44,388 nucleotides of DNA from a phage: the sequence record PX136376.1. One strand, written 5' to 3'. The notes under the pieces are model-generated. The model saw only the letters and a program-made list of their open reading frames with translations. It was not told the DNA's origin and did no database searches. Positions 3,297 to 42,467 of the stretch are shown here, one piece after another. How positions within the stretch are numbered: the stretch's first letter is position 1; each line of letters opens with the position of its first letter. Position numbers and translations under genes: made by a program.

Positions 3297-3325
3297 AAAA
3301 GGCCCCTTACAGGGCCTTAGTTTTA
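3297..3325. terminator. bidirectional rho-independent terminator (family copy 1)
   Basis: inverted repeat AAGGCCC/GGGCCTT with A-tract upstream and T-rich tract downstream, between convergent genes; stronger reading on minus strand. Confidence 0.55.
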
Positions 3326-3844
3326 TTTAACTCGCGCAGGCATTAACACCATAAATGCTGTATTTGAAAATGATATTTTACATCCTCTTGTTTGGTCCTG
3401 GAAATCGAAACGGGCAAATTCATTTTTGTATGCCTTAGAAATCTTGTACGCGTCCGCCAAATAGCGCAGAGTGAACCCTATGCTATCTACAGCACCTGGA
3501 GTAATGCGCGCCACGCGTCGCCAGTCAGGAAATTTTCCGTCTACAACATCAACCGGAAGGGTACATATAAGCGCACGACTATCGTCATAGAAAGAAACAT
3601 TGCCGTTGTCGTGGTCTACCTCAGCGTAGTTAAATTTAGAAGGCTCCCTCCCTTTGATGTCTATGAGAACTCCCGTTTCAACGTTTGTCTTCACATTGTC
3701 GCAGAACAATCTATGGCCATCCGTAGAAACTATCAATCCTTCAGGGTCTATGTAAAAAGCGTTAAAATAGTAGCGCACATCATTTTTAGCCCTGCAGATT
3801 TTCGCCCCTACATACGCGGGGAAAGTAATTACTGTAGTAACCAT
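3323..3844 (-). CDS. beta sliding clamp (DnaN)-like protein lacking clamp domain I
   Basis: 173 aa; motifs DVRYYFNA, LIVSTDGHRLF, VDGKFPDWRRV and C-terminal FMVLMPARVK resemble E. coli DnaN domain II/III motifs (recalled from memory); AGGAG RBS 8 nt before ATG; own promoter element upstream. Confidence 0.7.
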   Translation of the reverse strand: MVTTVITFPAYVGAKICRAKNDVRYYFNAFYIDPEGLIVSTDGHRLFCDNVKTNVETGVLIDIKGREPSKFNYAEVDHDNGNVSFYDDSRALICTLPVDVVDGKFPDWRRVARITPGAVDSIGFTLRYLADAYKISKAYKNEFARFDFQDQTRGCKISFSNTAFMVLMPARVK

Positions 3845-3863: not shown

Positions 3864-3900
3864 TTAACTGAATAGTACCCTATTATATTGGTGTCTGCAA
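3864..3900 (-). promoter_or_regulatory. conserved promoter/operator element, class 1 copy 1 (overlapping divergent sigma70-like promoters)
   Basis: minus-strand reading TTGCAG-N17-TACTAT toward the DnaN-like gene; plus-strand reading TTAACT-N17-TATATT toward head morphogenesis gene; central palindrome TAATAG-ggta-CTATTC. Confidence 0.5.
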
Positions 3901-4988: not shown

Positions 4989-5449
4989 TGATGGGCTTTT
5001 TCAAAGTAACTGATGTACCGTCGCGTCGCGTAGTCCAGTACGCCCGTGTGTCTGGCTCTGGCGAGAACGTGGTATTTATTGAAAATGAAAGTGTACTCGG
5101 TACACCAGTAGACGATATGCCGTTTGCTGATAAAACCGGTATTGCACTACCGGCGGCGGGTATGCTTTATGAAATTCCGTATCTGGCTGATGCTGGTGAT
5201 GTGTATTTCTCGGTGCAACCGAAAGACACGGAACTGGCAGACGGCAGCGCAACTATCACTGTCGAAGTTAAGGCGGGTAAAGCGCCGTATGCGCTGACCT
5301 GGTACAAAGACGGCAAGGAAGTGGTCAACGCCCCTGAAGAAGCTTTGTCTCTGACGGTTAACGCGGTGGGTGAATACTTCGTTAAAGTCACCGATGCCGA
5401 TGGGGTAGAGGCCGTCAGTAAAGCTGCGAAGGTTACTAAGCCGGAATGA
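4988..5449 (+). CDS. Ig-like domain protein (possible capsid accessory/decoration protein)
   Basis: 153 aa; beta-rich segment ...ALTWYKDGKEV...EYFVKVTDADG resembling an Ig-like fold; start overlaps preceding stop. Confidence 0.5.
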   Translation: MMGFFKVTDVPSRRVVQYARVSGSGENVVFIENESVLGTPVDDMPFADKTGIALPAAGMLYEIPYLADAGDVYFSVQPKDTELADGSATITVEVKAGKAPYALTWYKDGKEVVNAPEEALSLTVNAVGEYFVKVTDADGVEAVSKAAKVTKPE

Positions 5450-5519
5450 TAAAAAGCCGGAATGATAAAAAGCCGGAATGATAAAAAGCCGGAATGATAA
5501 AAAGCCGGAATGATAAAAA
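5440..5519. repeat. perfect tandem repeat, 5 copies of 16-bp unit GCCGGAATGATAAAAA
   Basis: read directly; first unit contains the stop codon of the 4988..5449 CDS; array abuts a terminator hairpin. Confidence 0.95.
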
Positions 5520-5545
5520 GCCCCGCTATGGGGCTTTATTTTTAT
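5515..5545 (+). terminator. rho-independent terminator
   Basis: stem AAAGCCCC/GGGGCTTT with loop GCTAT followed by TTTATTTTT. Confidence 0.65.
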
Positions 5546-6077: not shown

Positions 6078-6108
6078 GAATAGTACCCTATTATATTGGG
6101 GTGTGCAA
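6078..6108 (-). promoter_or_regulatory. conserved promoter/operator element, class 1 copy 2
   Basis: GAATAGTACCCTATTATATTGGGGTGTGCAA, identical to copy at 14882-14912; minus-strand TTGCAC-N17-TACTAT upstream of peptide-lipoprotein pair. Confidence 0.5.
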
Positions 6109-6174
6109 ACTATTTATTTACCTATTCCAGTTATTCCTCTCAATTGTAAATGTTGGAATAAACTATTCGAATAG

Positions 6175-6203
6175 TTGACTTTTCACTAAAAATGTGCTAA
6201 GCT
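6175..6203 (+). promoter_or_regulatory. putative sigma70-like promoter
   Basis: TTGACT-N17-TAAGCT; downstream ~200 nt have no convincing ORF and end in a GC hairpin at 6384-6403. Confidence 0.3.
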
Positions 6204-11909: not shown

Positions 11910-13076
11910 ATGGCTACAACTCCTTTTAAGGGCGCGAATACCGCGCAATTCTATGTGGCGGAAGTGACCCCGGGTGTAACACCGACTAACCCGGTCTGGT
12001 CACCATTACGTAACACGGGCGGTGTTCCTGCCATTACCCGTGACACACTGACCTCCAACGAACTCGACGGCAGCCGTGAAACTACATCCATCCGCACCGG
12101 TAACAAACAGGTTAGCGGTGAATACGCAATTGAGCTTAGCTCTAAAAGCCAGGATGACTGGTTGGCAGGTGCTTTAGGCTCTACGTGGCAATCCGGTGTT
12201 TCTCTGCCAGGACTATCGATCACCGTCGCGCCCGCGGGCAAGACGTTCACACGCGCTACCGGCAGTTTTATCACTGACGGAGTTGGGGTAGGCGACCTGA
12301 TTGCGTTTACCGACTTAACAGGCGATAACGCAAAACCATTTATTGTTACCGCAGTAACGGCTACCGTTGTTACTGGTGCAGGCATCCAACACACCCTGAC
12401 CACCGAGACAAAAACTAGTAAGGCTAAAACTGGCGACACGCTGGAAACCGGTAACACATGTAAGACGTTCTCTATTCTCACCTGGTACAAAGGACAGTGC
12501 GGCGGGACTGACGCATACACACTAACCAAAGGTGTGGAAGTTTCCGGTTTCACCGTTGAGCAGGCCGTTAACGCGATGGTTACAGGTAGCTTCCCGTTCA
12601 TCGGGCGCAGCCAGGAGATTCTTACTACGCCGCCGTCTGGTTCCAACTTCTCCTCTGTCACGTTTGGTGATGAGCCATTCTCCTCGGTTGACGTTTCTGT
12701 GTTTGACGGCTATACGCCGTTGCGTTGCGACAGCCTGACCATCACCAACGACAACAGCGCATCCGCGCAGTTCGAACTCGGCAACACTAACGTAGCGTTT
12801 GTAGAACGTAGCCGCGCGGCTAACACCTTCTCCATCTCCGGCAAGCTGTATGACATGGCGATGATTCAGAAGTTTATCAACGAGCAGCAGGTAGAGATTA
12901 ACTCTATTCTGGCGGGGGTAAACGGGGCTATGTCTTTCAGTTTGAAACGTGCGGAGCTTACGGCAGTTACCCCAGAGATTGGCGGACCTGAGTCAATCAC
13001 TCAGTCCATTGAAGGCCAGGCTACTGGCAACCAGTACCAGTCGTCTATTGTTATTCAGCGTATCACCTACGCATAA
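11910..13076 (+). CDS. major tail protein
   Basis: ~389 aa just upstream of chaperone/tape-measure genes; RBS aagagg 9 nt before ATG 11910; followed by strong terminator. Confidence 0.55.
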   Translation: MATTPFKGANTAQFYVAEVTPGVTPTNPVWSPLRNTGGVPAITRDTLTSNELDGSRETTSIRTGNKQVSGEYAIELSSKSQDDWLAGALGSTWQSGVSLPGLSITVAPAGKTFTRATGSFITDGVGVGDLIAFTDLTGDNAKPFIVTAVTATVVTGAGIQHTLTTETKTSKAKTGDTLETGNTCKTFSILTWYKGQCGGTDAYTLTKGVEVSGFTVEQAVNAMVTGSFPFIGRSQEILTTPPSGSNFSSVTFGDEPFSSVDVSVFDGYTPLRCDSLTITNDNSASAQFELGNTNVAFVERSRAANTFSISGKLYDMAMIQKFINEQQVEINSILAGVNGAMSFSLKRAELTAVTPEIGGPESITQSIEGQATGNQYQSSIVIQRITYA

Positions 13077-13106
13077 AACTAAGGCCCCGAAAGGGGCCTT
13101 TTTTAT
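13077..13106. terminator. bidirectional rho-independent terminator (family copy 2)
   Basis: AAGGCCCC-GAAA-GGGGCCTT followed by TTTTTTATT; sits between convergent major tail gene and minus-strand cassette. Confidence 0.7.
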
Positions 13107-13336
13107 TACTCATCAATGTTACTCCTGTACTCCCGTAACTTTTCCAGACTTTCAATTGCTTCCGCTAAGTCGGTTCCGGTGTCCTTGTGTCCACGTAAAC
13201 CCATGCACAATAGCTTCTTCAATGCGTGCTGTAACGCCGGGTCGCGGATGTCGAAAGCGCGGAGCACATCATAAACGTCTACTGTCATAGTGCTGCCGTG
13301 AGTATTTGTCATTGTGCGGTTGTATTTTGAAGTCAT
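13106..13336 (-). CDS. hypothetical protein (76 aa), last gene of minus-strand cassette
   Basis: start overlaps stop of upstream gene (ATGA); no recognised motif. Confidence 0.45.
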   Translation of the reverse strand: MTSKYNRTMTNTHGSTMTVDVYDVLRAFDIRDPALQHALKKLLCMGLRGHKDTGTDLAEAIESLEKLREYRSNIDE

Positions 13337-14463
13337 CCCAGCATCTCCGGTGAAATAGTTAAACGTGCGACCTCGCCATATTCGGCGCTATAAGTAATTA
13401 CATTTGCACTGCGGCCTGACATCCACCCGCCGCGGGAGGCATAGGCGTCTTTAGCCGCTAAGGTGCGGTGTTGCTCAACAATCATGTTACGGCTTTCTAC
13501 AATCTTCTGGTGGTGCAGGTGGCCTACGTGGGCGTAGCTATAGACACTCTCACCGAACGCTTTGCGGAATTTGGCAATCATAACCGGTTCGATAGCATCG
13601 AATCGCGCCTTATGCCCGTGGTGAAAGAACAACGTCGTTTTTCCGTGTTGCACCATCTTGTAAACATCCGGCGACGTATCGACAATCACTCGGCTGTCGT
13701 TCGAATATAAAACTGTGAACATTTCAGCCAGCCATACAGAGCCTACAGGGTCATGGTTCCCCTGTACGATAAGCAAGCGAACATTTTTATGTTTAACCAG
13801 TGCCATATCTACAACACGGCGTACCATACGAATCATGTAGCGGACGAGTTTCTGGTAGCGAGTGTCTGCGTCCAACACGTGACGCGACTCAGGTGTAACG
13901 GCATCCAGACTATCGAAGTGCGCGAAATCACCCAGCAGGTTAATAACTCCTGTTCCTGCATCCGGTGCTTTCTGAAACGCCGCGTCGAACCAACGAGAGA
14001 ACAGGTCTTCCGCAATCTTTATATCCCAGTCGTCGCCGCTCTCGTCGGCCCAGGCAAGCATACCGAGATGGAAATCAGATACCGTGTAAAGATTGAGTAG
14101 CTTGTCGTCGCGTTTGGCTCGAGTCGCTTTAGCCGGCGCAACTGGCGTAATCTCTGACTTCATGCCTTCAATCACGGCTTTCATCAACTCGACCTGACGT
14201 TCAGCGTCGGTGTCTGTCTTAACCCATTGCAACTTAGTATTGCCGAACTCGTCTACCAGAGACGACGTCCCTTTAATCTTGTAGCCGTCTGGGACAAGGT
14301 GGCTAACGTCACGCCCGTGGCCTACACCTTTCTTAGCCAGCTTCGCTTTACGGATACGAATAACTCGGTCTGAGATGCCGTATTTACGGGCGATGTCTAC
14401 ATTCTTCATCCCGGCGTTCAATTCTTCCTGTAACTGTTCGTCGGTTATTTTCTTCTGGGCCAT
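13333..14463 (-). CDS. HTH-domain protein fused to calcineurin-like metallophosphoesterase (Mre11/SbcD-like or phosphatase-like)
   Basis: N-terminal HTH-like segment (NVDIARKYGISDRVIRIRKAKL); metallophosphoesterase motifs DFH, GDFAHFD, GNHD, HHGH, GHLHH; RBS gaggaag. Confidence 0.7.
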   Translation of the reverse strand: MAQKKITDEQLQEELNAGMKNVDIARKYGISDRVIRIRKAKLAKKGVGHGRDVSHLVPDGYKIKGTSSLVDEFGNTKLQWVKTDTDAERQVELMKAVIEGMKSEITPVAPAKATRAKRDDKLLNLYTVSDFHLGMLAWADESGDDWDIKIAEDLFSRWFDAAFQKAPDAGTGVINLLGDFAHFDSLDAVTPESRHVLDADTRYQKLVRYMIRMVRRVVDMALVKHKNVRLLIVQGNHDPVGSVWLAEMFTVLYSNDSRVIVDTSPDVYKMVQHGKTTLFFHHGHKARFDAIEPVMIAKFRKAFGESVYSYAHVGHLHHQKIVESRNMIVEQHRTLAAKDAYASRGGWMSGRSANVITYSAEYGEVARLTISPEMLG

Positions 14464-14528
14464 GCTTACTTCCTCGTGTTTAGGATTTGTCCTATTTAAC
14501 CACAGTGGATTCCTTTAAATAAAGGCAA

Positions 14529-14855
14529 CTATTTACTTTCTGCGCCTATTGCCCATCCAGTCATTACCATTTGCAGACGGGTGGCTGTCAGAAGGCTGTA
14601 AAACGCGTCCCCGGTTTTCTCTACCGAACGTATTACCGTGTATGTTACGGCTTGCGGAGGTAGGCCCGATTTACCGACATCTACGGCGGCCTCGCATTCA
14701 CGGACTGTGGAGTCCTTAAATGCCTTTACAATAGTAGGGTCGGCTTTATCAAGCACACCAGAAGTCATAAGAACAGATTCACTAAATACCTGTTCGCACG
14801 GGGCTCCAAAAGTAGCAAAAGACATAAACCCCAGAGCTAATACTAATTTACGCAT
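14529..14855 (-). CDS. secreted/periplasmic protein (108 aa)
   Basis: N-terminal signal peptide MRKLVLALGFMSFATFGA; RBS gagga; first gene downstream of conserved promoter element. Confidence 0.55.
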   Translation of the reverse strand: MRKLVLALGFMSFATFGAPCEQVFSESVLMTSGVLDKADPTIVKAFKDSTVRECEAAVDVGKSGLPPQAVTYTVIRSVEKTGDAFYSLLTATRLQMVMTGWAIGAESK

Positions 14856-14881: not shown

Positions 14882-14912
14882 GAATAGTACCCTATTATAT
14901 TGGGGTGTGCAA
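14882..14912 (-). promoter_or_regulatory. conserved promoter/operator element, class 1 copy 3
   Basis: minus-strand TTGCAC-N17-TACTAT upstream of the three-gene cassette; plus-strand TTACAT-N17-TATATT toward tail chaperone gene. Confidence 0.5.
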
Positions 14913-25052: not shown

Positions 25053-26473
25053 TTCTTACCTCGTCTCTTCATGTAGTTAAGCAACTCTTCCTGTACCGAT
25101 TTCTTCTCGTCGGTACGCGCGGCAACAACCTCGTCCAGCGTGTCTTTAGCGACTATGTGATAAAGGAACACCGGGCGCTCGTGCCCAGCTTGTTTCTGGC
25201 GAACAGGGCCGATGCGCTCGACAACCTGCAAATAGTGCTCAAGATTCCAGCCTTGTGAAATAAACGCCAGATGATGGCCGCCGTCCTGTAAATTCAAACC
25301 ATGCCCGGCTGACGCAGGGTGTACGCATAAGATTTCTATTTCGCCGCGGTTCCACGCTTCCATCTGCTTATTACCCTTCGCGCCTTTGGAAAACGCCTGC
25401 GCCTGTGGGAATCGCTTAAGGATGCGCTCAAGTTCGTGCTTGAACTGATAGGCGACCAGCAACGGCGCGCCCTGCAACTCCTCCACAATTGACTCCAGCG
25501 CATCAAGTTTCGTGTCGTGCACTTTCTCCCATTCTTTGGTTGATTCGCCATCTGGCCCCGATACATACACGGCACCGGAGGCAATCTGTAGGCACTTCGA
25601 CGTCTTCGCCGCAGCGTTAGCCGCTTCAACTTCTCCGCTTTCCAGTTCCGCGAATAACTTCTCCTCCATATCGATGTACGCCTGACGTGCTTTCTTCGGC
25701 AGGTCGATTTCAACCGGCACAATAATCGGCGCTTCACACCCGAACCACTCGGCGGCGTCAATCGTGAGACTAATGTCCTTCATCTTCTGGTGGATTTCAG
25801 TATCCGCACCCGGGCGGGCGTGGTATTCGCGCGCCATAGCAGATTTGCCTTTCTGCACCGAGTTAAACCAGCGGTCGGTGAATGCCGTGTACGAAGAACC
25901 GAGGCGCTCGCCCGCGTCGATAAACCAGTTCTGTCCCCACAAGTCCTTGAGGCCGTTAGGCGATGGTGTACCTGTCAGGTTGATAAAACGCTTAACCTTT
26001 CCGAACGCCACTCTACTAAGCGCCTTCGCCCGCTTGCTGCCGCCTGAACGGCTGCGGAATGACTTCAGTTTCGTGCTTTCATCGGCAACGATAACGGTAA
26101 AAGGCCAGTCGTCTTTGCCGTAGTAGTCAATCAACCACTCTATTACCTCATAGTTCGTGCACACCACGTTAGCATCTGACTCCAGCGCCGCGATGCGGCG
26201 CTTCTCTGAACCGGTCGCGTCTACGACACGCAGACATGGGAAATTCCATTTAGTTTGTTCCGCCGGCCATGTGCCTGATGCAACGCGCAACGGGGCGAGG
26301 ATTAACACGCGGTCCTCTTCTGTAAGCTGCCCGTTGCGGAACAGTCGGTTTAATGTCCACAGTACGCTGCCAGTCTTCCCGGCGCCCATGCTCGCCCAAA
26401 TATTACAGCGATGGTGCCGCAACATGAACGAAGTCATTAGCTTCTGGTATTCGCGCCTTTGAAACTTACTCAT
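25049..26473 (-). CDS. superfamily-2 DNA helicase (DEAD/SNF2-like)
   Basis: Walker A GAGKTG, motif II VADEST, LTGTP motif; 474 aa. Confidence 0.8.
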   Translation of the reverse strand: MSKFQRREYQKLMTSFMLRHHRCNIWASMGAGKTGSVLWTLNRLFRNGQLTEEDRVLILAPLRVASGTWPAEQTKWNFPCLRVVDATGSEKRRIAALESDANVVCTNYEVIEWLIDYYGKDDWPFTVIVADESTKLKSFRSRSGGSKRAKALSRVAFGKVKRFINLTGTPSPNGLKDLWGQNWFIDAGERLGSSYTAFTDRWFNSVQKGKSAMAREYHARPGADTEIHQKMKDISLTIDAAEWFGCEAPIIVPVEIDLPKKARQAYIDMEEKLFAELESGEVEAANAAAKTSKCLQIASGAVYVSGPDGESTKEWEKVHDTKLDALESIVEELQGAPLLVAYQFKHELERILKRFPQAQAFSKGAKGNKQMEAWNRGEIEILCVHPASAGHGLNLQDGGHHLAFISQGWNLEHYLQVVERIGPVRQKQAGHERPVFLYHIVAKDTLDEVVAARTDEKKSVQEELLNYMKRRGKK

Positions 26474-27263
26474 TTACGGCCCCCATGAACGCCTTTATAA
26501 ATTCAGCGGCTACTTGCGGGACGATAGCATTGCCGTAACCGCGCAATCGTCCCACTCTTGCGGATACCCCATGAGTTGCCTCGCAAAATCCGCCTGGTAT
26601 GACTCTAGTTTCCTTATCTGCTCCATGGTTGGGTTTCCATGAATCCCATAAACATGAAGCCACATCTGGCGATAAAGAGTATCGTTCCTGAATTTTCCGT
26701 CCTTTCTGTAAAATGTCTTGCTGAGATCCCCGTAATCCTTCCATCCTCGCGCCGTTGGTGTCGCCCATCCTCGCGCCAAAGATGATTCTTTTCCTTTCCT
26801 GTGGAGAGCCGACGCTGCAAGCTGGCAATACTGACGCCCCGCAGGCGTAGCCTTTGTCTTCCAGGTTAAGGAATACAAAATCGAGCCAGTGCTTCCCAAT
26901 TGCTGCTGCAACCTGCTCTCCAAACAGCAATTCAGGCTTGCACTCTCTGATGAGCCTGAGAAATGCTGGGGCAAGGTGTCGATCGTCGTCAAATCCGAGA
27001 GACTTACCGGCAACGCTAAACGGCTGGCAAGGTGGTGATCCTGTCCAGAGTCGAGTGCTTTCTGGTATTCCTGCCAGCTGGAGTGCAAGGGGCCACCCTC
27101 CGATTCCGGCAAAGAAGTGACACTGTGTAAATCCTTCCAGGTCTGAAGGGGTGACTTCGGTGATTGATCGTTCATCGACATATCCGTAAGGAATTAGTTT
27201 ATTGTTAATTAATTCACGCAGCCACGCGGCTGCGCCTTTATCCCATTCGTTGTAATAGTTCAT
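26466..27263 (-). CDS. DNA (cytosine-5)-methyltransferase
   Basis: motif I FFAGIGG, motif IV PPCQPFS (catalytic Cys), ENV-like EQV, QERKR, C-terminal GNAIV; compact 265 aa. Confidence 0.8.
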   Translation of the reverse strand: MNYYNEWDKGAAAWLRELINNKLIPYGYVDERSITEVTPSDLEGFTQCHFFAGIGGWPLALQLAGIPESTRLWTGSPPCQPFSVAGKSLGFDDDRHLAPAFLRLIRECKPELLFGEQVAAAIGKHWLDFVFLNLEDKGYACGASVLPACSVGSPQERKRIIFGARMGDTNGARMEGLRGSQQDILQKGRKIQERYSLSPDVASCLWDSWKPNHGADKETRVIPGGFCEATHGVSARVGRLRGYGNAIVPQVAAEFIKAFMGAVNE

Positions 27264-27451: not shown

Positions 27452-27767
27452 TTCTAAATTCCTTATATTGTTGGGGTATGTGCTTACTATAATAGTCTGC
27501 TATTAGGGTGTCAATCTGTTTTATCGAACCAACGACAAAAACATTTGCGCCACGTTTACGTATACGCTCGTGTTCCCGTAGCTGGTGCGGGTCTGGCTTA
27601 GTGTTTTCGTCTTTCTTCACCTCGACGAACCAGACGATGCCGCCGGGTAGAATTGCCAGCAGGTCAGGAGCGCCTGAACGTCCTTCGTAGGAAAGTTTAC
27701 GAACGAGGCCACCAATGGCCTCGAATCGCTCTTTTGCGTATTTCTGGATGCGGCCCTCTTTAGTCAT
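27435..27767 (-). CDS. VRR-NUC domain nuclease
   Basis: 110 aa; PDLLAIL...VWFVEVKK pattern consistent with VRR-NUC PD-(D/E)XK core (recalled). Confidence 0.6.
   Translation of the reverse strand: MTKEGRIQKYAKERFEAIGGLVRKLSYEGRSGAPDLLAILPGGIVWFVEVKKDENTKPDPHQLREHERIRKRGANVFVVGSIKQIDTLIADYYSKHIPQQYKEFRNETRI
27486..27514 (-). promoter_or_regulatory. class 2 promoter with palindromic operator (internal to VRR-NUC coding region)
   Basis: minus-strand TTGACA-N17-TATAGT with perfect palindrome TAATAG-tctg-CTATTA in spacer/-10. Confidence 0.45.
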
Positions 27768-28815: not shown

Positions 28816-28892
28816 TAATAACTCCAAAAAAAAATACCGACATAGCCATTATATCGGTATTTACATTTTCTACAACGTATTTCCTAAATCTA

Positions 28893-31970: not shown

Positions 31971-31999
31971 ACTATAATAGCTAACTATTCAGGTGTCAA
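31971..31999 (-). promoter_or_regulatory. class 2 promoter with palindromic operator
   Basis: minus-strand TTGACA-N17-TATAGT; palindrome TAATAG-ctaa-CTATTC; ~55 nt upstream of SSB-like gene start. Confidence 0.5.
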
Positions 32000-34607: not shown

Positions 34608-34835
34608 CTACTCGCCGTCGCCTTCTGTAAGGCTATCGTCTATTAATTCAAATTTACCGTTTGGGTGTTGAATAGCTTCTTGCCCGCAATGGTCGCAGAC
34701 AACAAGTTTATCGAACCCATCAAACTCATCCCCTACTACGCAAGAAAGTACAAATTTATGTTTTGTGCACACTTCTTGCGGAGCGCCGAAAATTGCTCGA
34801 AAACCTTTAGCTATGGCCCCAGTGATTGTGTTCAT
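34608..34835 (-). CDS. small zinc-ribbon-like protein (75 aa)
   Basis: Cys pattern C-x8-C...C-x2-C; first gene downstream of class 2 promoter. Confidence 0.45.
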   Translation of the reverse strand: MNTITGAIAKGFRAIFGAPQEVCTKHKFVLSCVVGDEFDGFDKLVVCDHCGQEAIQHPNGKFELIDDSLTEGDGE

Positions 34836-34863: not shown

Positions 34864-34893
34864 ACTATAATAGCGAACTATTCACATGTCAAT
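34864..34893 (-). promoter_or_regulatory. class 2 promoter with palindromic operator O1
   Basis: minus-strand TTGACA-N17-TATAGT; palindrome TAATAG-cgaa-CTATTC. Confidence 0.5.
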
Positions 34894-34911
34894 GGGCTTT
34901 TCTAAAATAAT

Positions 34912-34927
34912 TAATATGGTACTATTC
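34912..34927. promoter_or_regulatory. second operator-like site O2
   Basis: TAATAT-ggta-CTATTC, one mismatch from O1 half-site; ~30 bp upstream of the HTH gene start. Confidence 0.4.
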
Positions 34928-34956
34928 ACATATCAACTGACTAAGGAGTAATTGAC

Positions 34957-35172
34957 ATGCAACCATCTGAACTAGGCATCCGTGTAGAACAACGCCGCAA
35001 AGAACTCGGCATCTCCCAGCGCCGTTTGGCGGCCCTGACCGGCGTTTCCCAGGGCGCGATTAACCAACTGGCACTTGGAGTAACTCAGGACGTCCGCCCG
35101 GCAACGCTGTTCAAACTGGCGGAAGTTCTGGAAGTAGACGCCAAGTGGCTGGCGTTAGGTGAAGGGGCTTAA
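34957..35172 (+). CDS. XRE-family HTH transcriptional regulator (Cro/CI-like)
   Basis: 71 aa; classic HTH LGISQRRLAALTGVSQGAINQLALG; RBS aaggag; only rightward gene inside the leftward module. Confidence 0.8.
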   Translation: MQPSELGIRVEQRRKELGISQRRLAALTGVSQGAINQLALGVTQDVRPATLFKLAEVLEVDAKWLALGEGA

Positions 35173-35190
35173 AGCCCCTTTCTTTTTACC
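35162..35190 (+). terminator. rho-independent terminator
   Basis: AGGGGCTT-AAAGCCCCT hairpin followed by TTCTTTTT. Confidence 0.6.
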
Positions 35191-37448
35191 TATTCCAAAT
35201 CCTCCTCTGTCACCACCAGCATCTCATTTGGTTCGTATAGTGTCTTCGGCCTTAATCTATCCCCTATTCTTTCGGGTATACGATATGTTCTCGGTACTAC
35301 TTCGCCGTTAGCATCGCAACCAAGCATTAGTTCTCCATCTTTCAACATTTTATCAAGATGGGTGTTAGTCACAGAGAAGTCACCGGAACGAGCCACTATC
35401 TGCTGCTGAGTAAAACCGCGACCTGTGTCATCTGACTGTTGCAGGTCTTCCAGTGCCGAAAGTATTGACTCCTTCCTTACTTCATCCCTGCCGCGTTTAA
35501 CTTCTTCCTTTACTTTTTGCTTACCTTCTTTCGTCAACCCTTCTTCCCGCTCTTTCTCCTCGTCAGTTTTGAACGGCTCGAAACCCCACGGCATCAACAC
35601 AAGCGCCTTGTGTGGTTCAGGCAGGTCCAGGTTTACGATTGTGCCGTATTCCTCTGTGCTACCCAGGAACTCAACCGCTCGGTATTCTTTAGGCGGCGGC
35701 GCTTCACGGAACTGTACCGACTCCAGCACCATGCCAACCGTCTTCTGCTGAGGCCCGTGCTTGAATTTCGAGTGATATACGTTTATCTGACGGTCGGTTG
35801 CACGTTCGATTGTCAGTTCCACGTCAACACCCGCATACAGCGCCCCACTGCCGCGTGCTTTCTTTCCACCCTTCGGCGTATGGTGGACAACGCCTACTGC
35901 GGCTTTAGTTGCATCGCGTACTTCTTTCAGAATGGCGATAACTTTACCCATGCCGATTGCTGTTGATGAACTGTTCTCGTCGAACTTATCAATCGTCAGG
36001 GCCAGCGTCTGGTTAAGGGTGTCGAAGGCAACCATGCCAATAGGTTCATCCCCTGCGGTTTCGCGCATCCTGCGGATTAGAGCTGGAATTTTTTTATCAC
36101 CATGCGTAGCGAGTATTTCGCCCATATCGATGACATGTACATAATCTTTACCTTCCTCGCCATATTTAGCCGCGAGTGCATCAATACGTGTTCGTGTAGC
36201 TGCACCACCCTCGCCGTCAATATAGAAATGGTGGCAACGTTGGGTGTCAGCCCCCGCAAACCGGTACCCGGCGGCGCTCAGGTACATCATCCCCAGCGTA
36301 TAGAATGATTTGTACGTGCCGGATTCCCCGACAATATCCCAGATACAATCCGACGGCATGTACCCCTCAACGACGAAATCAGCCTTTACCGGTTCTGGTA
36401 ACTCGTCCTCCTCTGAGTCCTCGTCGTCTTCCAGGTCGTCGAGGCTGCATGAGACAGATTCACGCGCCCCCCAACCGATGGCCTCTGCGACTTCACTGAA
36501 CGGCAGCCCGGTCGCATCGCACGCGTACTTCCACACCTCTTTCGGTGACAGGCCTTCTGTCGCCGTAATGTCTGTGTCGTGAATCATGGTTACGTTTGGC
36601 GCTTCATACCCCTCGCGCGGGAAGCACAGCAGGAAGTCGTCCGGGCGCGGTGTCGGGTCGCTGTAGTTTTCGGCATGTTCCGGTGTGGCTGGCATCTTAA
36701 GGCCGCGCGGCGTCATGACGCCGCCGTACTCAAACGCCAGTGCTTCAAACGCGTCTGTAAACGCGGTGCGCAGTTCTTCCGGTATCTGGTAATCCGATGC
36801 GCTGCTAACGTCAACGGCTGGGATGCCTTCCAGTAACTCGTTCGGGTCGATCAGGTCGTTGCGGCGCGACCAGATAACGGTAGCGCCGACCGGCGGCAGG
36901 TACATCGGCTGCGACAGAGTGAACCCGCTGCGGTCCGCACCCATGCCTTTGAAGAAGTGCTCCAGCAACCCATGACGAACACGGATGATGTCACCACCCT
37001 CCACCGGACGGGCCAGTGGCATTACGACGCGAAAGCGCGGTGACTCATCAGTATGTGATGCCGTGGTATAGAGGCACATGGCCCAGCGGCTGCGCTTAAC
37101 CAGGCGCACCGCTTCCTGATACTCTTCCGGTGTTGTGCTGTCGAAATCCAGATAGGCCAGCGACGATTTGCTTACAGACGCATCGCAGCGGTAGAAAAAA
37201 CCTTTACGCGCTTGCTTAAAGTCTCCAGTTTCCGGGTCTTTTACGGTGCTGTGCGTTGAGTCGCACGCGGCGGTGATATAACCGGGCGCGGTCTTAGGGT
37301 TAATCCCGTCGCGAACGGCATCGAGCGGCTGGATTAACTCTTTCAGGTCGTCCAGTGTTGCCGTGTGTGCGGTTCTGACATTTATATCCTTTTTTCCCGC
37401 CCGCGCGTTGCGGCGTGACCACGAGTAGGATAAAATTACATCGGACAT
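35190..37448 (-). CDS. putative replicative primase-helicase
   Basis: 752 aa; Walker A GESGTYKS in C-terminal RecA-fold region; large N-terminal domain of primase-like size; function inferred. Confidence 0.6.
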   Translation of the reverse strand: MSDVILSYSWSRRNARAGKKDINVRTAHTATLDDLKELIQPLDAVRDGINPKTAPGYITAACDSTHSTVKDPETGDFKQARKGFFYRCDASVSKSSLAYLDFDSTTPEEYQEAVRLVKRSRWAMCLYTTASHTDESPRFRVVMPLARPVEGGDIIRVRHGLLEHFFKGMGADRSGFTLSQPMYLPPVGATVIWSRRNDLIDPNELLEGIPAVDVSSASDYQIPEELRTAFTDAFEALAFEYGGVMTPRGLKMPATPEHAENYSDPTPRPDDFLLCFPREGYEAPNVTMIHDTDITATEGLSPKEVWKYACDATGLPFSEVAEAIGWGARESVSCSLDDLEDDEDSEEDELPEPVKADFVVEGYMPSDCIWDIVGESGTYKSFYTLGMMYLSAAGYRFAGADTQRCHHFYIDGEGGAATRTRIDALAAKYGEEGKDYVHVIDMGEILATHGDKKIPALIRRMRETAGDEPIGMVAFDTLNQTLALTIDKFDENSSSTAIGMGKVIAILKEVRDATKAAVGVVHHTPKGGKKARGSGALYAGVDVELTIERATDRQINVYHSKFKHGPQQKTVGMVLESVQFREAPPPKEYRAVEFLGSTEEYGTIVNLDLPEPHKALVLMPWGFEPFKTDEEKEREEGLTKEGKQKVKEEVKRGRDEVRKESILSALEDLQQSDDTGRGFTQQQIVARSGDFSVTNTHLDKMLKDGELMLGCDANGEVVPRTYRIPERIGDRLRPKTLYEPNEMLVVTEEDLE

Positions 37449-37505: not shown

Positions 37506-37739
37506 TTATTCCAGGTCTTCTAAAGTGGCTGTCACCCCACGAACTTCGGCAACAGCACTATATCTCCCGCCAACATTTTTCACGACACCAGATTTAACCA
37601 GCACCTTCAACGACCCTTCAATGATGGCGGAACTATAGTACCTAAAATAACTGCGGCGCAAGTCCATAACGCTGCACGACCCTTTTTTACGTGTTACCGA
37701 AACAACCGCCGTAAATACGCGTGACTGGAACTCGGTCAT
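37506..37739 (-). CDS. hypothetical protein (77 aa)
   Basis: start overlaps stop of upstream HTH gene (ATGA). Confidence 0.45.
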   Translation of the reverse strand: MTEFQSRVFTAVVSVTRKKGSCSVMDLRRSYFRYYSSAIIEGSLKVLVKSGVVKNVGGRYSAVAEVRGVTATLEDLE

Positions 37740-37906
37740 TTTACATTCTCCTTAATCCACGCTTCTACTTTCTCCGGGTCGAACGTACCTGGCTGGCGAC
37801 GGCCCATAATGCGAACACAACAATCCGGGAACTTACCGCTCTTTAACCAGTTATTCAGCGTGCGGCGGGTAACCCCGATACGCTCAGCTACTTCATTCTG
37901 TGTCAT
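37736..37906 (-). CDS. small HTH DNA-binding protein (AlpA/Xis-like fold, 56 aa)
   Basis: VAERIGVTRRTLNNWLKSGKFP helix-turn-helix; RBS gaggg 9 nt upstream; below ORF-track cutoff. Confidence 0.5.
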   Translation of the reverse strand: MTQNEVAERIGVTRRTLNNWLKSGKFPDCCVRIMGRRQPGTFDPEKVEAWIKENVK

Positions 37907-37967: not shown

Positions 37968-38337
37968 ACATAATTGCACCTATTGACATTATGAAAATCT
38001 TCGTTTAAGATGCTTCTATATCTTAGTTACTTTGATTCCTGTTCACCTTGTAAGAATGTTTAACCCGTGCGTCAAGCAAAGGGTTAAACACAGGCTTACT
38101 GAACATGAGAATTATCGTAACTTTCCTTCCTAAGTATCTCCGGTTGCCCTGGGCAAGCTCTATTCTCATCGGCGGCATATCTCTTAAGTATCTGATTTTC
38201 TTAATGTGCCGTAGATTCGCAACCGTAAAAATGTAACGATTATTGGGCAGGCTTAGGGCCTGCCCTTTAGTTACCAAGTAATAAGAATAAAGGCACAACC
38301 CTACCTGAAGAATCACAACGGCAACGTAACTAATCTC

Positions 38338-38368
38338 TTGCACACCCCAATATAATAGGATACTATTC
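38338..38368 (+). promoter_or_regulatory. conserved promoter/operator element, class 1 copy 4 (rightward)
   Basis: TTGCAC-N17-TACTAT with palindrome TAATAG-gata-CTATTC; 30 nt upstream of RBS gaggag and gene at 38401. Confidence 0.5.
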
Positions 38369-39096: not shown

Positions 39097-39254
39097 GAGA
39101 AGCATTCGAACGGTGGGCCGTCGTCGATGGTCTGCCGGTTAATAAGGGTTCGAAGAAAGAGTACCTGAACGTTAAGACGCGTCTTGCGTGGCGGGCGTGG
39201 AAAGCTGGTGCGCAATATCGGGCCGGTGTAACAGGCGGTGTAACAGGTCAATAG
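39093..39254 (+). CDS. hypothetical protein (53 aa)
   Basis: ATGA overlap with upstream gene; below ORF-track cutoff. Confidence 0.35.
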   Translation: MREAFERWAVVDGLPVNKGSKKEYLNVKTRLAWRAWKAGAQYRAGVTGGVTGQ

Positions 39255-39276
39255 GTTACTATTTGTCTTTGTGTCT

Positions 39277-39402: not shown

Positions 39403-39431
39403 TTGCACACTAGGATAGAATAGACTACTAT
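39403..39431 (+). promoter_or_regulatory. class 1-like promoter (diverged copy 5)
   Basis: TTGCAC-N17-TACTAT; operator-like AATAG-acta-CTATTC; 30 nt upstream of gene at 39463. Confidence 0.45.
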
Positions 39432-39462
39432 TCATTTACACGAACGAGAGGAGATACGGAAG

Positions 39463-39612
39463 ATGGTTACTTTGATGGTTATGGAATTCGAAAACAGCGC
39501 AGCAACTTACCGTGAGATGACTATGGCGCAGGCGTATCACCTGGCCTCAAACGGCAACTTCTACAAGGCGCAAATCATCAACGAGTTTGGGGTAATTGAC
39601 TATGAATTTTAG
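39463..39612 (+). CDS. hypothetical protein (49 aa)
   Basis: RBS gagaggag; below ORF-track cutoff. Confidence 0.4.
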   Translation: MVTLMVMEFENSAATYREMTMAQAYHLASNGNFYKAQIINEFGVIDYEF

Positions 39613-42417: not shown

Positions 42418-42438
42418 TCTATTTTCTGCGATGACTAG

Positions 42439-42467
42439 TTGACTATTATCTATGACCATATTATATT
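42439..42467 (+). promoter_or_regulatory. putative sigma70-like promoter (related to rightward reading of class 1 element)
   Basis: TTGACT-N17-TATATT; spacer resembles class 1 spacer; upstream of gene at 42502. Confidence 0.4.

Follow-up and report, generated by a model that had tools for sequence, protein, structure and literature searches.

A Cro-like gene in a virulent Kagunavirus and a recurrent promoter palindrome as its predicted operator

The Cro protein of phage 434 is a single-domain protein of about 70 amino acids and five helices, encoded at a divergent promoter region where its sites overlap promoters. Its operators are 14 bp long, the outer 5 + 5 bp being contacted and conserved, while the inner 4 bp are neither contacted nor conserved (PMC1636474). 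Here we describe a gene for a small helix-turn-helix (HTH) protein of this type, referred to below as the Cro-like gene, in a 44,388-nt stretch of phage DNA (PX136376.1, analysed over its full length and called the window), together with a 14-bp palindrome, AATAG-N4-CTATT, that recurs in promoters of the same genome. The Cro-like protein shares with 434 Cro its single-domain, five-helix architecture (37–40% identity) and its location at a divergent promoter region, and the palindrome, as far as can be read from its copies, shares with the 434 operator the length, the two-fold symmetry, the 5+4+5 layout and the free central 4 bp. By analogy, the Cro-like protein would be expected to lower early transcription as well as its own production. 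The two systems also differ. The half-site is AATAG here and ACAAG in 434; there is neither a CI protein nor a tripartite right or left operator (OR, OL), but two sites at the locus and ten dispersed ones; the gene forms, in Kagunavirus and Jerseyvirus, a one-gene unit with its own terminator and not the head of a long early operon; and the present phage, which infects E. coli, is virulent.

Control of most transcription units by one small repressor acting at many dispersed sites is known from C1 of phage P1 and from gp71 of mycobacteriophage L5, whose sites are called 'stoperators', and the circuit proposed here would resemble these in its one small repressor and many sites. Both, however, are immunity repressors of temperate phages with asymmetric sites, many of the L5 sites lying in transcribed regions, whereas the sites described here are symmetric and lie in promoter cores (the assignment of one of them, at 39250, is weak). 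In the strictly lytic phage phi29, the small DNA-binding protein p4 represses early promoters by binding there; p4 has an unrelated fold, cooperates with p6 and is an activator of the late promoter as well, whereas activation is not implied for the Cro-like protein. The restriction-modification control (C) proteins C.AhdI and C.BclI are small HTH proteins of the same fold as the Cro-like protein, likewise with a strong and a weak palindrome upstream of their own genes, but the Cro-like gene has no linked restriction enzyme, its two sites are 44 bp apart and ten further sites lie elsewhere. The nearest functional analogues would therefore seem to be Cro itself, the multi-operator repressors P1 C1 and L5 gp71 and, for a virulent phage, phi29 p4.

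We propose, with a confidence only somewhat above even, that a dimer of the Cro-like protein occupies the palindromes and, by occlusion, represses the leftward promoter of the replication module (PL), the other promoters that bear the element and its own gene. Both the annotation of the protein as a repressor and the repeat itself were already known; the link between gene and repeat, the placement of the repeat in promoter cores and the comparative argument are new.

The Cro-like gene and the palindromes upstream of it

By its sequence, the window is the essentially complete genome of a phage of the genus Kagunavirus in the subfamily Guernseyvirinae; these siphophages are described as strictly lytic. 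When 2 kb around the locus served as query, 471 phage records were matched, the best being the BASEL Kagunaviruses Bas73, Bas70 and Bas75, with 98–99% identity. In many close relatives the query matched in two pieces with 87% coverage, leaving about 250 bp unmatched, a gap that may coincide with the gene for a 75-amino-acid protein next to PL.

The Cro-like gene is real. Its open reading frame (ORF) occupies 34957..35172 on the plus strand, including the stop codon, starts with ATG and codes for 71 amino acids. A ribosome-binding site read from the sequence, AAGGAG (34943..34948), lies 8 nt before the ATG and is unchanged across 36 Kagunavirus sequences, one variant excepted. Downstream, a predicted intrinsic terminator with a hairpin and a T-run (35161..35190, plus strand; hairpin 35161–35181, folding free energy −20 kcal/mol, z −3.3) would end a one-gene transcript in the face of the converging primase-helicase gene (35190–37448, minus strand). 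The gene is under strong purifying selection, with a mean ratio of nonsynonymous to synonymous polymorphism (pN/pS) of 0.06 over 35 Kagunavirus alleles, and helices 2–3 of the protein are nearly invariant in 15 Kagunavirus protein variants. The orthologue in the relative K1B4 (gene 004) is transcribed (PMC12645636), and many database records already carry the gene as 'transcriptional repressor'.

The assignment of the product to the Cro/CI-like HTH class, made in an earlier note based on the letters of the window, was borne out. The protein matches Pfam HTH_3 (PF01381, XRE) over residues 11–65 with an E-value of 3.9e-13 and 49.7 bits against a cutoff of 23. A phmmer search of the PDB returned 434 Cro (E 8.5e-6) and the N-terminal domain of 434 repressor (E 1.1e-5). 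In an AlphaFold2 model with a confidence score (pLDDT) of 78, five helices span residues 5–17, 21–28, 32–39, 48–57 and 62–66, and Foldseek matched this model to 2cro and 3cro with template-modelling (TM) scores of 0.70–0.75 at 37–40% identity; C.AhdI and C.BclI were also among the structural matches. At 71 amino acids, a five-helix bundle without a C-terminal oligomerisation or peptidase domain, the protein has the make-up of a single-domain regulator of the 434 Cro type. Its context differs from that of HigA, HipB or MqsA-like antitoxins, as there is no adjacent co-transcribed toxin gene and the next gene lies on the opposite strand.

The Cro-like gene is, as had been claimed, alone on its strand: it is the only credible plus-strand gene between ~25.0 and ~38.0 kb. 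The annotation of Bas70 lists one further plus-strand ORF, of 30 amino acids, that spans the promoter region and looks spurious. Apart from the primase-helicase gene, the neighbours are genes of the replication module, and the genes divergent from the Cro-like gene code for proteins of 75 and 166 amino acids that have neither an HTH nor a peptidase domain. The first of these, at the head of the PL operon (34608–34835, minus strand), contains four cysteines (C23, C31, C47 and C50). The sole methyltransferase gene (26466–27263) is ~8 kb away, and no restriction enzyme gene is linked to the Cro-like gene. The absence of integrase and lysogeny genes also held as far as it was followed: Bas70, which is 98% identical, has neither an integrase nor a CI-type repressor anywhere in its annotation, the ORFs of the window not all having been scanned, and the paper on phage fBC-Eco01 did not report integrase or lysogeny-associated genes. 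Rfam and tRNA scans of the window gave no matches.

Upstream of the Cro-like gene lies a 25-nt direct repeat whose copies, at 34868–34892 and 34912–34936, are 84% identical and 44 nt apart from centre to centre. The two operator-like sites seen there by the earlier note, 34868–34883 (TAATAGCGAACTATTC) and 34912–34927 (TAATATGGTACTATTC), exist and are the cores of this repeat, although they do not flank the gene as stated, since both copies lie upstream of it. The first contains a perfect palindrome, AATAG-CGAA-CTATT (34869..34882, O1), and the second an imperfect one with one mismatch, AATAT-GGTA-CTATT (34913..34926, O2). O1 occupies the spacer of PL, at about −25 to −12, which agrees with the claim that one site overlaps the divergent leftward promoter. 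PL (34864..34892, minus strand; TTGACA-17-TATAGT) has 11/12 matches to the consensus, drives the replication module, is followed by a start codon with ribosome-binding site 22 nt past the predicted transcription start, and is kept in Jerseyvirus and Cornellvirus. Across 36 unique Kagunavirus sequences the arms of O1 are constant, while the central 4 bp and a few bases beside the −35 vary.

O2 lies on the Cro-like gene's own promoter, for which 34881..34925 (plus strand) offers two candidates: TTCACA (34881–34886)-16-TAAAAT (34903–34908), or a promoter with the −10 TACTAT (34920–34925). O2 overlaps the TACTAT, or sits at ~+1 under the TTCACA-16-TAAAAT promoter, so that on either reading it would cover the −10 or +1 region; it resembles the class A elements described below but is without their TTGCAC −35. 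In the relative represented by contig L045 the TAAAAT is lost while TACTAT and O2 are retained, and at the corresponding position Jerseyvirus SE2 reads TTGCGT-17-TACTAT. The layout had been likened to an autoregulated genetic switch. A divergent promoter region does contain two sites, of which O1 lies on PL and O2 on the promoter of the Cro-like gene, but the CI partner is missing: there is no divergent CI-type gene, and the two sites, 44 bp apart, do not form a series like OR1 to OR3 of the lambdoid phages.

The palindrome in promoter cores across the genome

When one mismatch was allowed in the core AATAG-N4-CTATT, the window contained 12 copies against 1.1 expected, a number that none of 100 shuffles reached, and this is by far the commonest 5-mer palindrome at gaps of 0 to 8. 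The copies overlap the −35, the spacer or the −10 of sigma70-type promoters, the promoter assignment at 39250 being weak, and at nine sites a start codon with ribosome-binding site follows 20–32 nt past the predicted transcription start. With ten copies beyond the locus, the palindrome is shared by promoters throughout the genome, as the palindrome regulon of the earlier note had supposed.

The sites fall into three arrangements. In class B, TTGACA-N4-AATAGnnnnCTATT-ATAGT, the palindrome lies in the spacer at ~−25 to −12. The three class B promoters all point leftward into the replication module and are three of the four best sigma70 matches genome-wide, with 11/12 each: in addition to PL (34869), these are TTGACA-17-TATAGT promoters upstream of the SSB and DNA polymerase genes (palindrome at 31976..31989) and upstream of the methyltransferase and helicase genes (27491..27504). 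In class A, TTGCAC-N10-AATAGGgTACTATT, the right arm holds the −10 TACTAT. Three class A promoters lead leftward to accessory genes that lie reversed within the structural module: the sites at 3871..3884, for the accessory gene 3323..3844, which is absent from the near-identical Bas70; at 6079..6092, for a small reversed ORF starting at ~6052; and at 14883..14896, between the diverging leftward gene 14529..14855 and the rightward tail-assembly chaperone gene. Two run rightward, with palindromes over the −10 of a TTGCAC-17-TACTAT promoter before small genes of the right arm (38354..38367) and in a class A-like promoter before the gene that starts at 39463 (39419..39432). Class C, A(A/C)TAG-TTGA-CT(A/T)TT, has the −35 TTGACT within the palindrome, which is imperfect at both sites; these face rightward toward late and structural genes. 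One (42434..42447; TTGACT-17-TATATT) follows a terminator and is conserved in SE2 and K1H, and the other (6170..6183; TTGACT-17-TAAGCT) points toward the spanin and scaffold genes. The remaining copy, at 39250..39263, lies just past a tandem repeat of 2 × 12 bp.

Judged from the sequence, several features of the palindrome are characteristic of a two-fold symmetric site to which a protein dimer binds. Among the copies of this genome, as at O1 among relatives, the arms are fixed and the central four bases variable; the arm that does not serve as a −10 (TGAATAG) retains AATAG in 11/12 sites; and both arms are also intact in classes B and C, where the palindrome has moved into the spacer or the −35.

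The repeat has been described before. In the fBC-Eco01 paper, the program PHIRE found the same repeat (consensus tgAATAGTa-ccTATTat-T, seven copies), and the copies were named phage RNA polymerase promoters. That reading looks wrong because no RNA polymerase gene is present among the annotated genes of the relatives examined. A reading in which the class A elements are promoters and GGGGTGTGCAA lies downstream was also dropped, as the opposite strand has TTGCAC-17-TACTAT with a ribosome-binding site and a start codon 21–32 nt downstream. An exact-pattern scan of IMG/VR with the extended motif revealed no second phage group: the matches that could be placed were Kagunavirus contigs, the remaining single matches not having been examined. 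Counting of k-mers for new motifs in other genera gave output dominated by coding-biased k-mers.

Other sequence features were observed near these sites. The reversed accessory genes in the rightward structural module (3323–3844, ~6052 and 13333–14855, minus strand) each have their own class A palindrome promoter. Beside the class C site at 6170, the half-sites occur in inverse order, ACTATT-CG-AATAGT (CTATT-N2-AATAG, 6155–6170). The tandem repeat directly upstream of the 39250 palindrome (39224–39247, CGGTGTAACAGG) is kept in contig L028 and could be a site for another regulator. Elsewhere in the window, a perfect tandem repeat of 16 bp in 5.3 copies (AAGCCGGAATGATAAA, 5438–5522) runs into a two-way terminator hairpin (5517–5537), and just downstream of the DNA polymerase gene there is a hairpin whose stem measures 13 bp, with a T-run after it (28832–28862, minus strand).

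The candidate binder, its proposed action and the alternatives

Two small HTH proteins are encoded in the genome, the Cro-like protein and an excisionase/MerR-like protein of 56 amino acids (37736..37906, minus strand; Pfam HTH_17, E 2e-7), which stands outside the proposed circuit. To choose between possible binders, we compared three genera of the subfamily. The Cro-like gene is present and syntenic in Kagunavirus, Jerseyvirus and Cornellvirus, always as the first gene opposite PL. Jerseyvirus SE2 carries seven palindromes at orthologous promoters against 0.8 expected. Cornellvirus lacks the exact AATAG-N4-CTATT palindrome but has a quasi-palindrome, AWTAS-N4-STAWT, in 4–5 promoters against ~0.5 expected, one of the matches lying in PL. 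At the promoter of the Cornellvirus Cro-like gene there is a one-mismatch site, outside the counted matches, which reads ATTAG-TAGA-GTATA in VSiA and ATTAC-TGAT-GTATA in SE1 and contigs L046–L048. This promoter also drives the primase-helicase gene, which in the Cornellviruses (34354–37005 of L004, 4112–7002 of L005) follows the Cro-like gene immediately and in the same orientation; the primase-helicase segment of Kagunavirus and Jerseyvirus is inverted relative to Cornellvirus and converges on the Cro-like gene.

The motif follows the genus of the phage and not the host, as Jerseyvirus and Cornellvirus share a host and differ in motif while Kagunavirus and Jerseyvirus differ in host and share the motif. 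A host factor is therefore unlikely to be the palindrome binder. Known host sites, namely those of OxyR (ATAG-N7-CTAT), TrpR (CTAG boxes) and SlyA (TTAG-N4-CTAA), do not fit, on an informal comparison, in spacing or half-site. The glutamine of the Cro-like protein that corresponds to 434 Gln28 does not vary within the subfamily, and the position of Gln29 is occupied by Gly or Ser; we take 434 Gln29 to read operator positions 2–3, where AATAG differs from ACAAG. The Cro homologue of the temperate Hafnia phage Meifeng keeps Q-Q-S, with operators ACAG-N6-CTGT. A word-based protein search returned only close Kagunavirus relatives. Distant homologues of the Cro-like protein in L050 and L051 (36–37% identity) are accompanied by palindromes of the same 5+4+5 geometry upstream of ~9953, perfect in L051 (TGTAG-TTTG-CTACA) and with one mismatch in L050 (GGTAG-TTTT-CTACA), and have a different recognition helix; the distant homologues (L050–L052) were set aside as a guide to specificity, since helices and palindromes both differ. 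Overall, the comparison of genera favours the Cro-like protein over the HTH_17 protein as the predicted palindrome binder.

In the mechanism that we propose, a protein of the 434 Cro type would sit as a dimer on the 14-bp AATAG-N4-CTATT, contacting the outer 5 + 5 bp and leaving the central 4 bp free. Bound over the −35, the spacer or the −10, it would keep host RNA polymerase off the promoter; occlusion is suggested because the palindromes sit inside promoter cores. Repression is the natural reading because the three leftward element-bearing promoters match the consensus at 11/12 and would need no activator. Occupancy of O1 would silence PL, the near-consensus promoter of the replication module, while the imperfect O2 would limit transcription of the Cro-like gene itself, giving negative autoregulation, and the other sites would turn down the two internal replication promoters, the promoters of the reversed accessory genes and those of the right arm. 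Repression may be graded by site quality, as O2 and two structural-gene promoters carry imperfect sites. The gene, the fold class and conservation of its product, and the number of sites with their placement in promoters are established; we infer binding by the Cro-like protein, repression through binding and any hierarchy of sites, and the same applies to the role of 'master regulator' given to the protein by the earlier note.

Several observations weigh against this proposal. The recognition helices SQGAINQ in Kagunavirus and SQSLITH in Jerseyvirus go with the same palindrome, while the similar helices of Jerseyvirus (SQSLITH) and Cornellvirus (TQSAISH) go with different motifs. The helices thus do not co-vary simply with the site, the opposite of what a simple pairing of protein and site would give; the outcome across genera is ambiguous and weakens the Cro-like and the HTH_17 candidate alike. 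Part of the arm conservation reflects promoter constraint, since every site has one half that overlaps sequence resembling a −10. The O1–O2 spacing varies among relatives (44, 45, 55 and ~63 bp). A repressor on nearly every promoter, the structural ones included, would be an odd design unless affinities are graded. The K1B4 transcriptome, which is coarse (5 to 120 min), shows no shut-off (PMC12645636), and a literature search found no experimental work on the Cro-like protein or its predicted operator.

The HTH_17 protein might instead be the one that binds the palindrome, as an activator or repressor of post-immediate-early promoters, leaving the Cro-like protein a minor or different role. 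MerR-type proteins bind in the promoter spacer, which is where the class B palindromes lie. The promoter region of the HTH_17 gene is itself without a palindrome, and the protein is 89% identical between Kagunavirus and Jerseyvirus, both of which have the exact palindrome, and missing from Cornellvirus, which is without it. In K1B4, the only close relative with a transcriptome, the HTH_17 orthologue (008) is among only four 'early' genes, most others, including the Cro-like orthologue 004, being 'middle' (PMC12645636). However, the HTH_17 gene does not accompany the element everywhere: Cornellvirus, without it, still has the related 14-bp element in promoters, and the Kagunavirus contig L028, also without it, retains its palindromes, eight in number and orthologous in position. 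Within Kagunavirus, the recognition helix of the HTH_17 protein takes several forms (TRRTLNNW, TRQTINNW, SPMTLNRW) while the palindrome is unchanged, and the 56 amino acids of the protein include no dimerisation region. Small proteins of this class, such as BldC and the excisionases, bind direct repeats and not two-fold symmetric sites, and promoters with 11/12 matches and 17-bp spacers need no activation of the MerR type. We consider a palindrome-binding HTH_17 protein quite improbable. A different possibility keeps the Cro-like protein as binder but makes it a two-way controller of its own locus, like the C proteins or lambda CI at PRM: O1 would activate the Cro-like gene and repress PL, and the weak O2 would bring self-repression at high concentration, giving a delayed, sharp switch. 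Such a design would suit a perfect O1 paired with an imperfect O2, the poor −35 of the gene's own promoter under the TACTAT reading, the C.AhdI and C.BclI structural matches and, under TTCACA-16-TAAAAT, the position of O1 centred ~40 bp upstream of the start with O2 at ~+1. It is weakened because the O1–O2 spacing is not conserved, ranging from 44 to ~63 bp, and because TAAAAT is lost in L045; nor does TAAAAT have an equivalent in Jerseyvirus SE2. Restriction-modification C-boxes, moreover, lie adjacent to each other and not 44 bp apart. Two-way control at this locus therefore seems doubtful to us.

It could also be that no dedicated phage repressor is involved. The palindrome would then be intrinsic to the promoters or a site for a host protein, with the Cro-like protein acting elsewhere, for example on host genes, or persisting as a relic of a temperate ancestor. 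In favour of this, all copies occur in promoters and have one half that blends into a TATAAT-, TATTAT- or TACTAT-like sequence; between diverging genes, where several of the sites are located, hexamers resembling promoters are readable in either direction; the fBC-Eco01 authors took the repeat as a promoter consensus; and the helices of the Cro-like protein, as noted above, show no simple co-variation with the motif. Contacts of RNA polymerase, however, do not require AATAG, with its conserved G and C positions, in the half that is not the −10, where it is kept in 11/12 sites. They also leave unexplained the intact arms in classes B and C, where the palindrome is off the −10, and a central 4 bp as free to vary as in a dimer operator, while the tracking of phage genus speaks against a host protein. 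A relic is disfavoured because the gene is under strong purifying selection and syntenic across three genera. On this evidence we regard an account without a phage repressor as improbable, and continue to favour repression by the Cro-like protein.

Transcription timing and significance

The earlier note had suggested that the protein times the early-to-middle transition. This is unsupported, because the Cro-like gene is itself 'middle' in K1B4 and because the sites are all in repressing positions, on early/replication, accessory and structural-leading promoters. Their placement points to general repression or turn-down and not to activation of a middle class. What the locus would then represent, on a slight balance of probability, is a turn-down circuit of the Cro type, belonging to a virulent phage that has no CI partner and no lysis-lysogeny switch. 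A more far-reaching version, which we put forward as speculative and rather unlikely, is that this virulent siphophage runs most of its transcription with one Cro-type protein and graded operators in sigma70 promoter cores. In such a one-protein timer, the perfect sites on early/replication and accessory promoters would be shut first and the imperfect ones, on the structural-gene promoters and the gene's own promoter, last or in part, and it would run without CI, a phage sigma factor or a phage RNA polymerase.

The region around the HTH_17 gene has features of its own. Between 37907 and 38373, ~470 bp are free of genes and contain diverging, palindrome-free sigma70-like promoters, one (37967→37939) leftward into the HTH_17/primase operon and one (37983–38011) rightward, as well as a strong terminator (38245–38265). 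This stretch, which has no Rfam match, may specify a non-coding transcript of ~240 nt or form an immediate-early control region. In L028, the HTH_17 gene and the gene for a 77-amino-acid protein are replaced by genes for a 47-amino-acid CxxC...CxxC protein and a 149-amino-acid protein (12559–13144 of that contig), which looks like a cassette exchange in the early region.

When phages against E. coli and Salmonella are sought for therapy and biocontrol, the Guernseyvirinae (Kagunavirus, Jerseyvirus and Cornellvirus) are among those isolated most often, and several are now in the BASEL reference collection, yet the transcription programme of the group is essentially undescribed. The present analysis supplies a directly testable map of ~12 promoters with a common predicted operator and one strongly conserved candidate regulator of the Cro type, and gives a published 'phage RNA polymerase promoter' motif a corrected reading. 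The promoter map would stand even if the binding reading failed. If that reading is true, the locus would provide a compact repressor–operator pair together with strong repressible E. coli promoters, and a case study of how a Cro protein functions in a phage without lysogeny.

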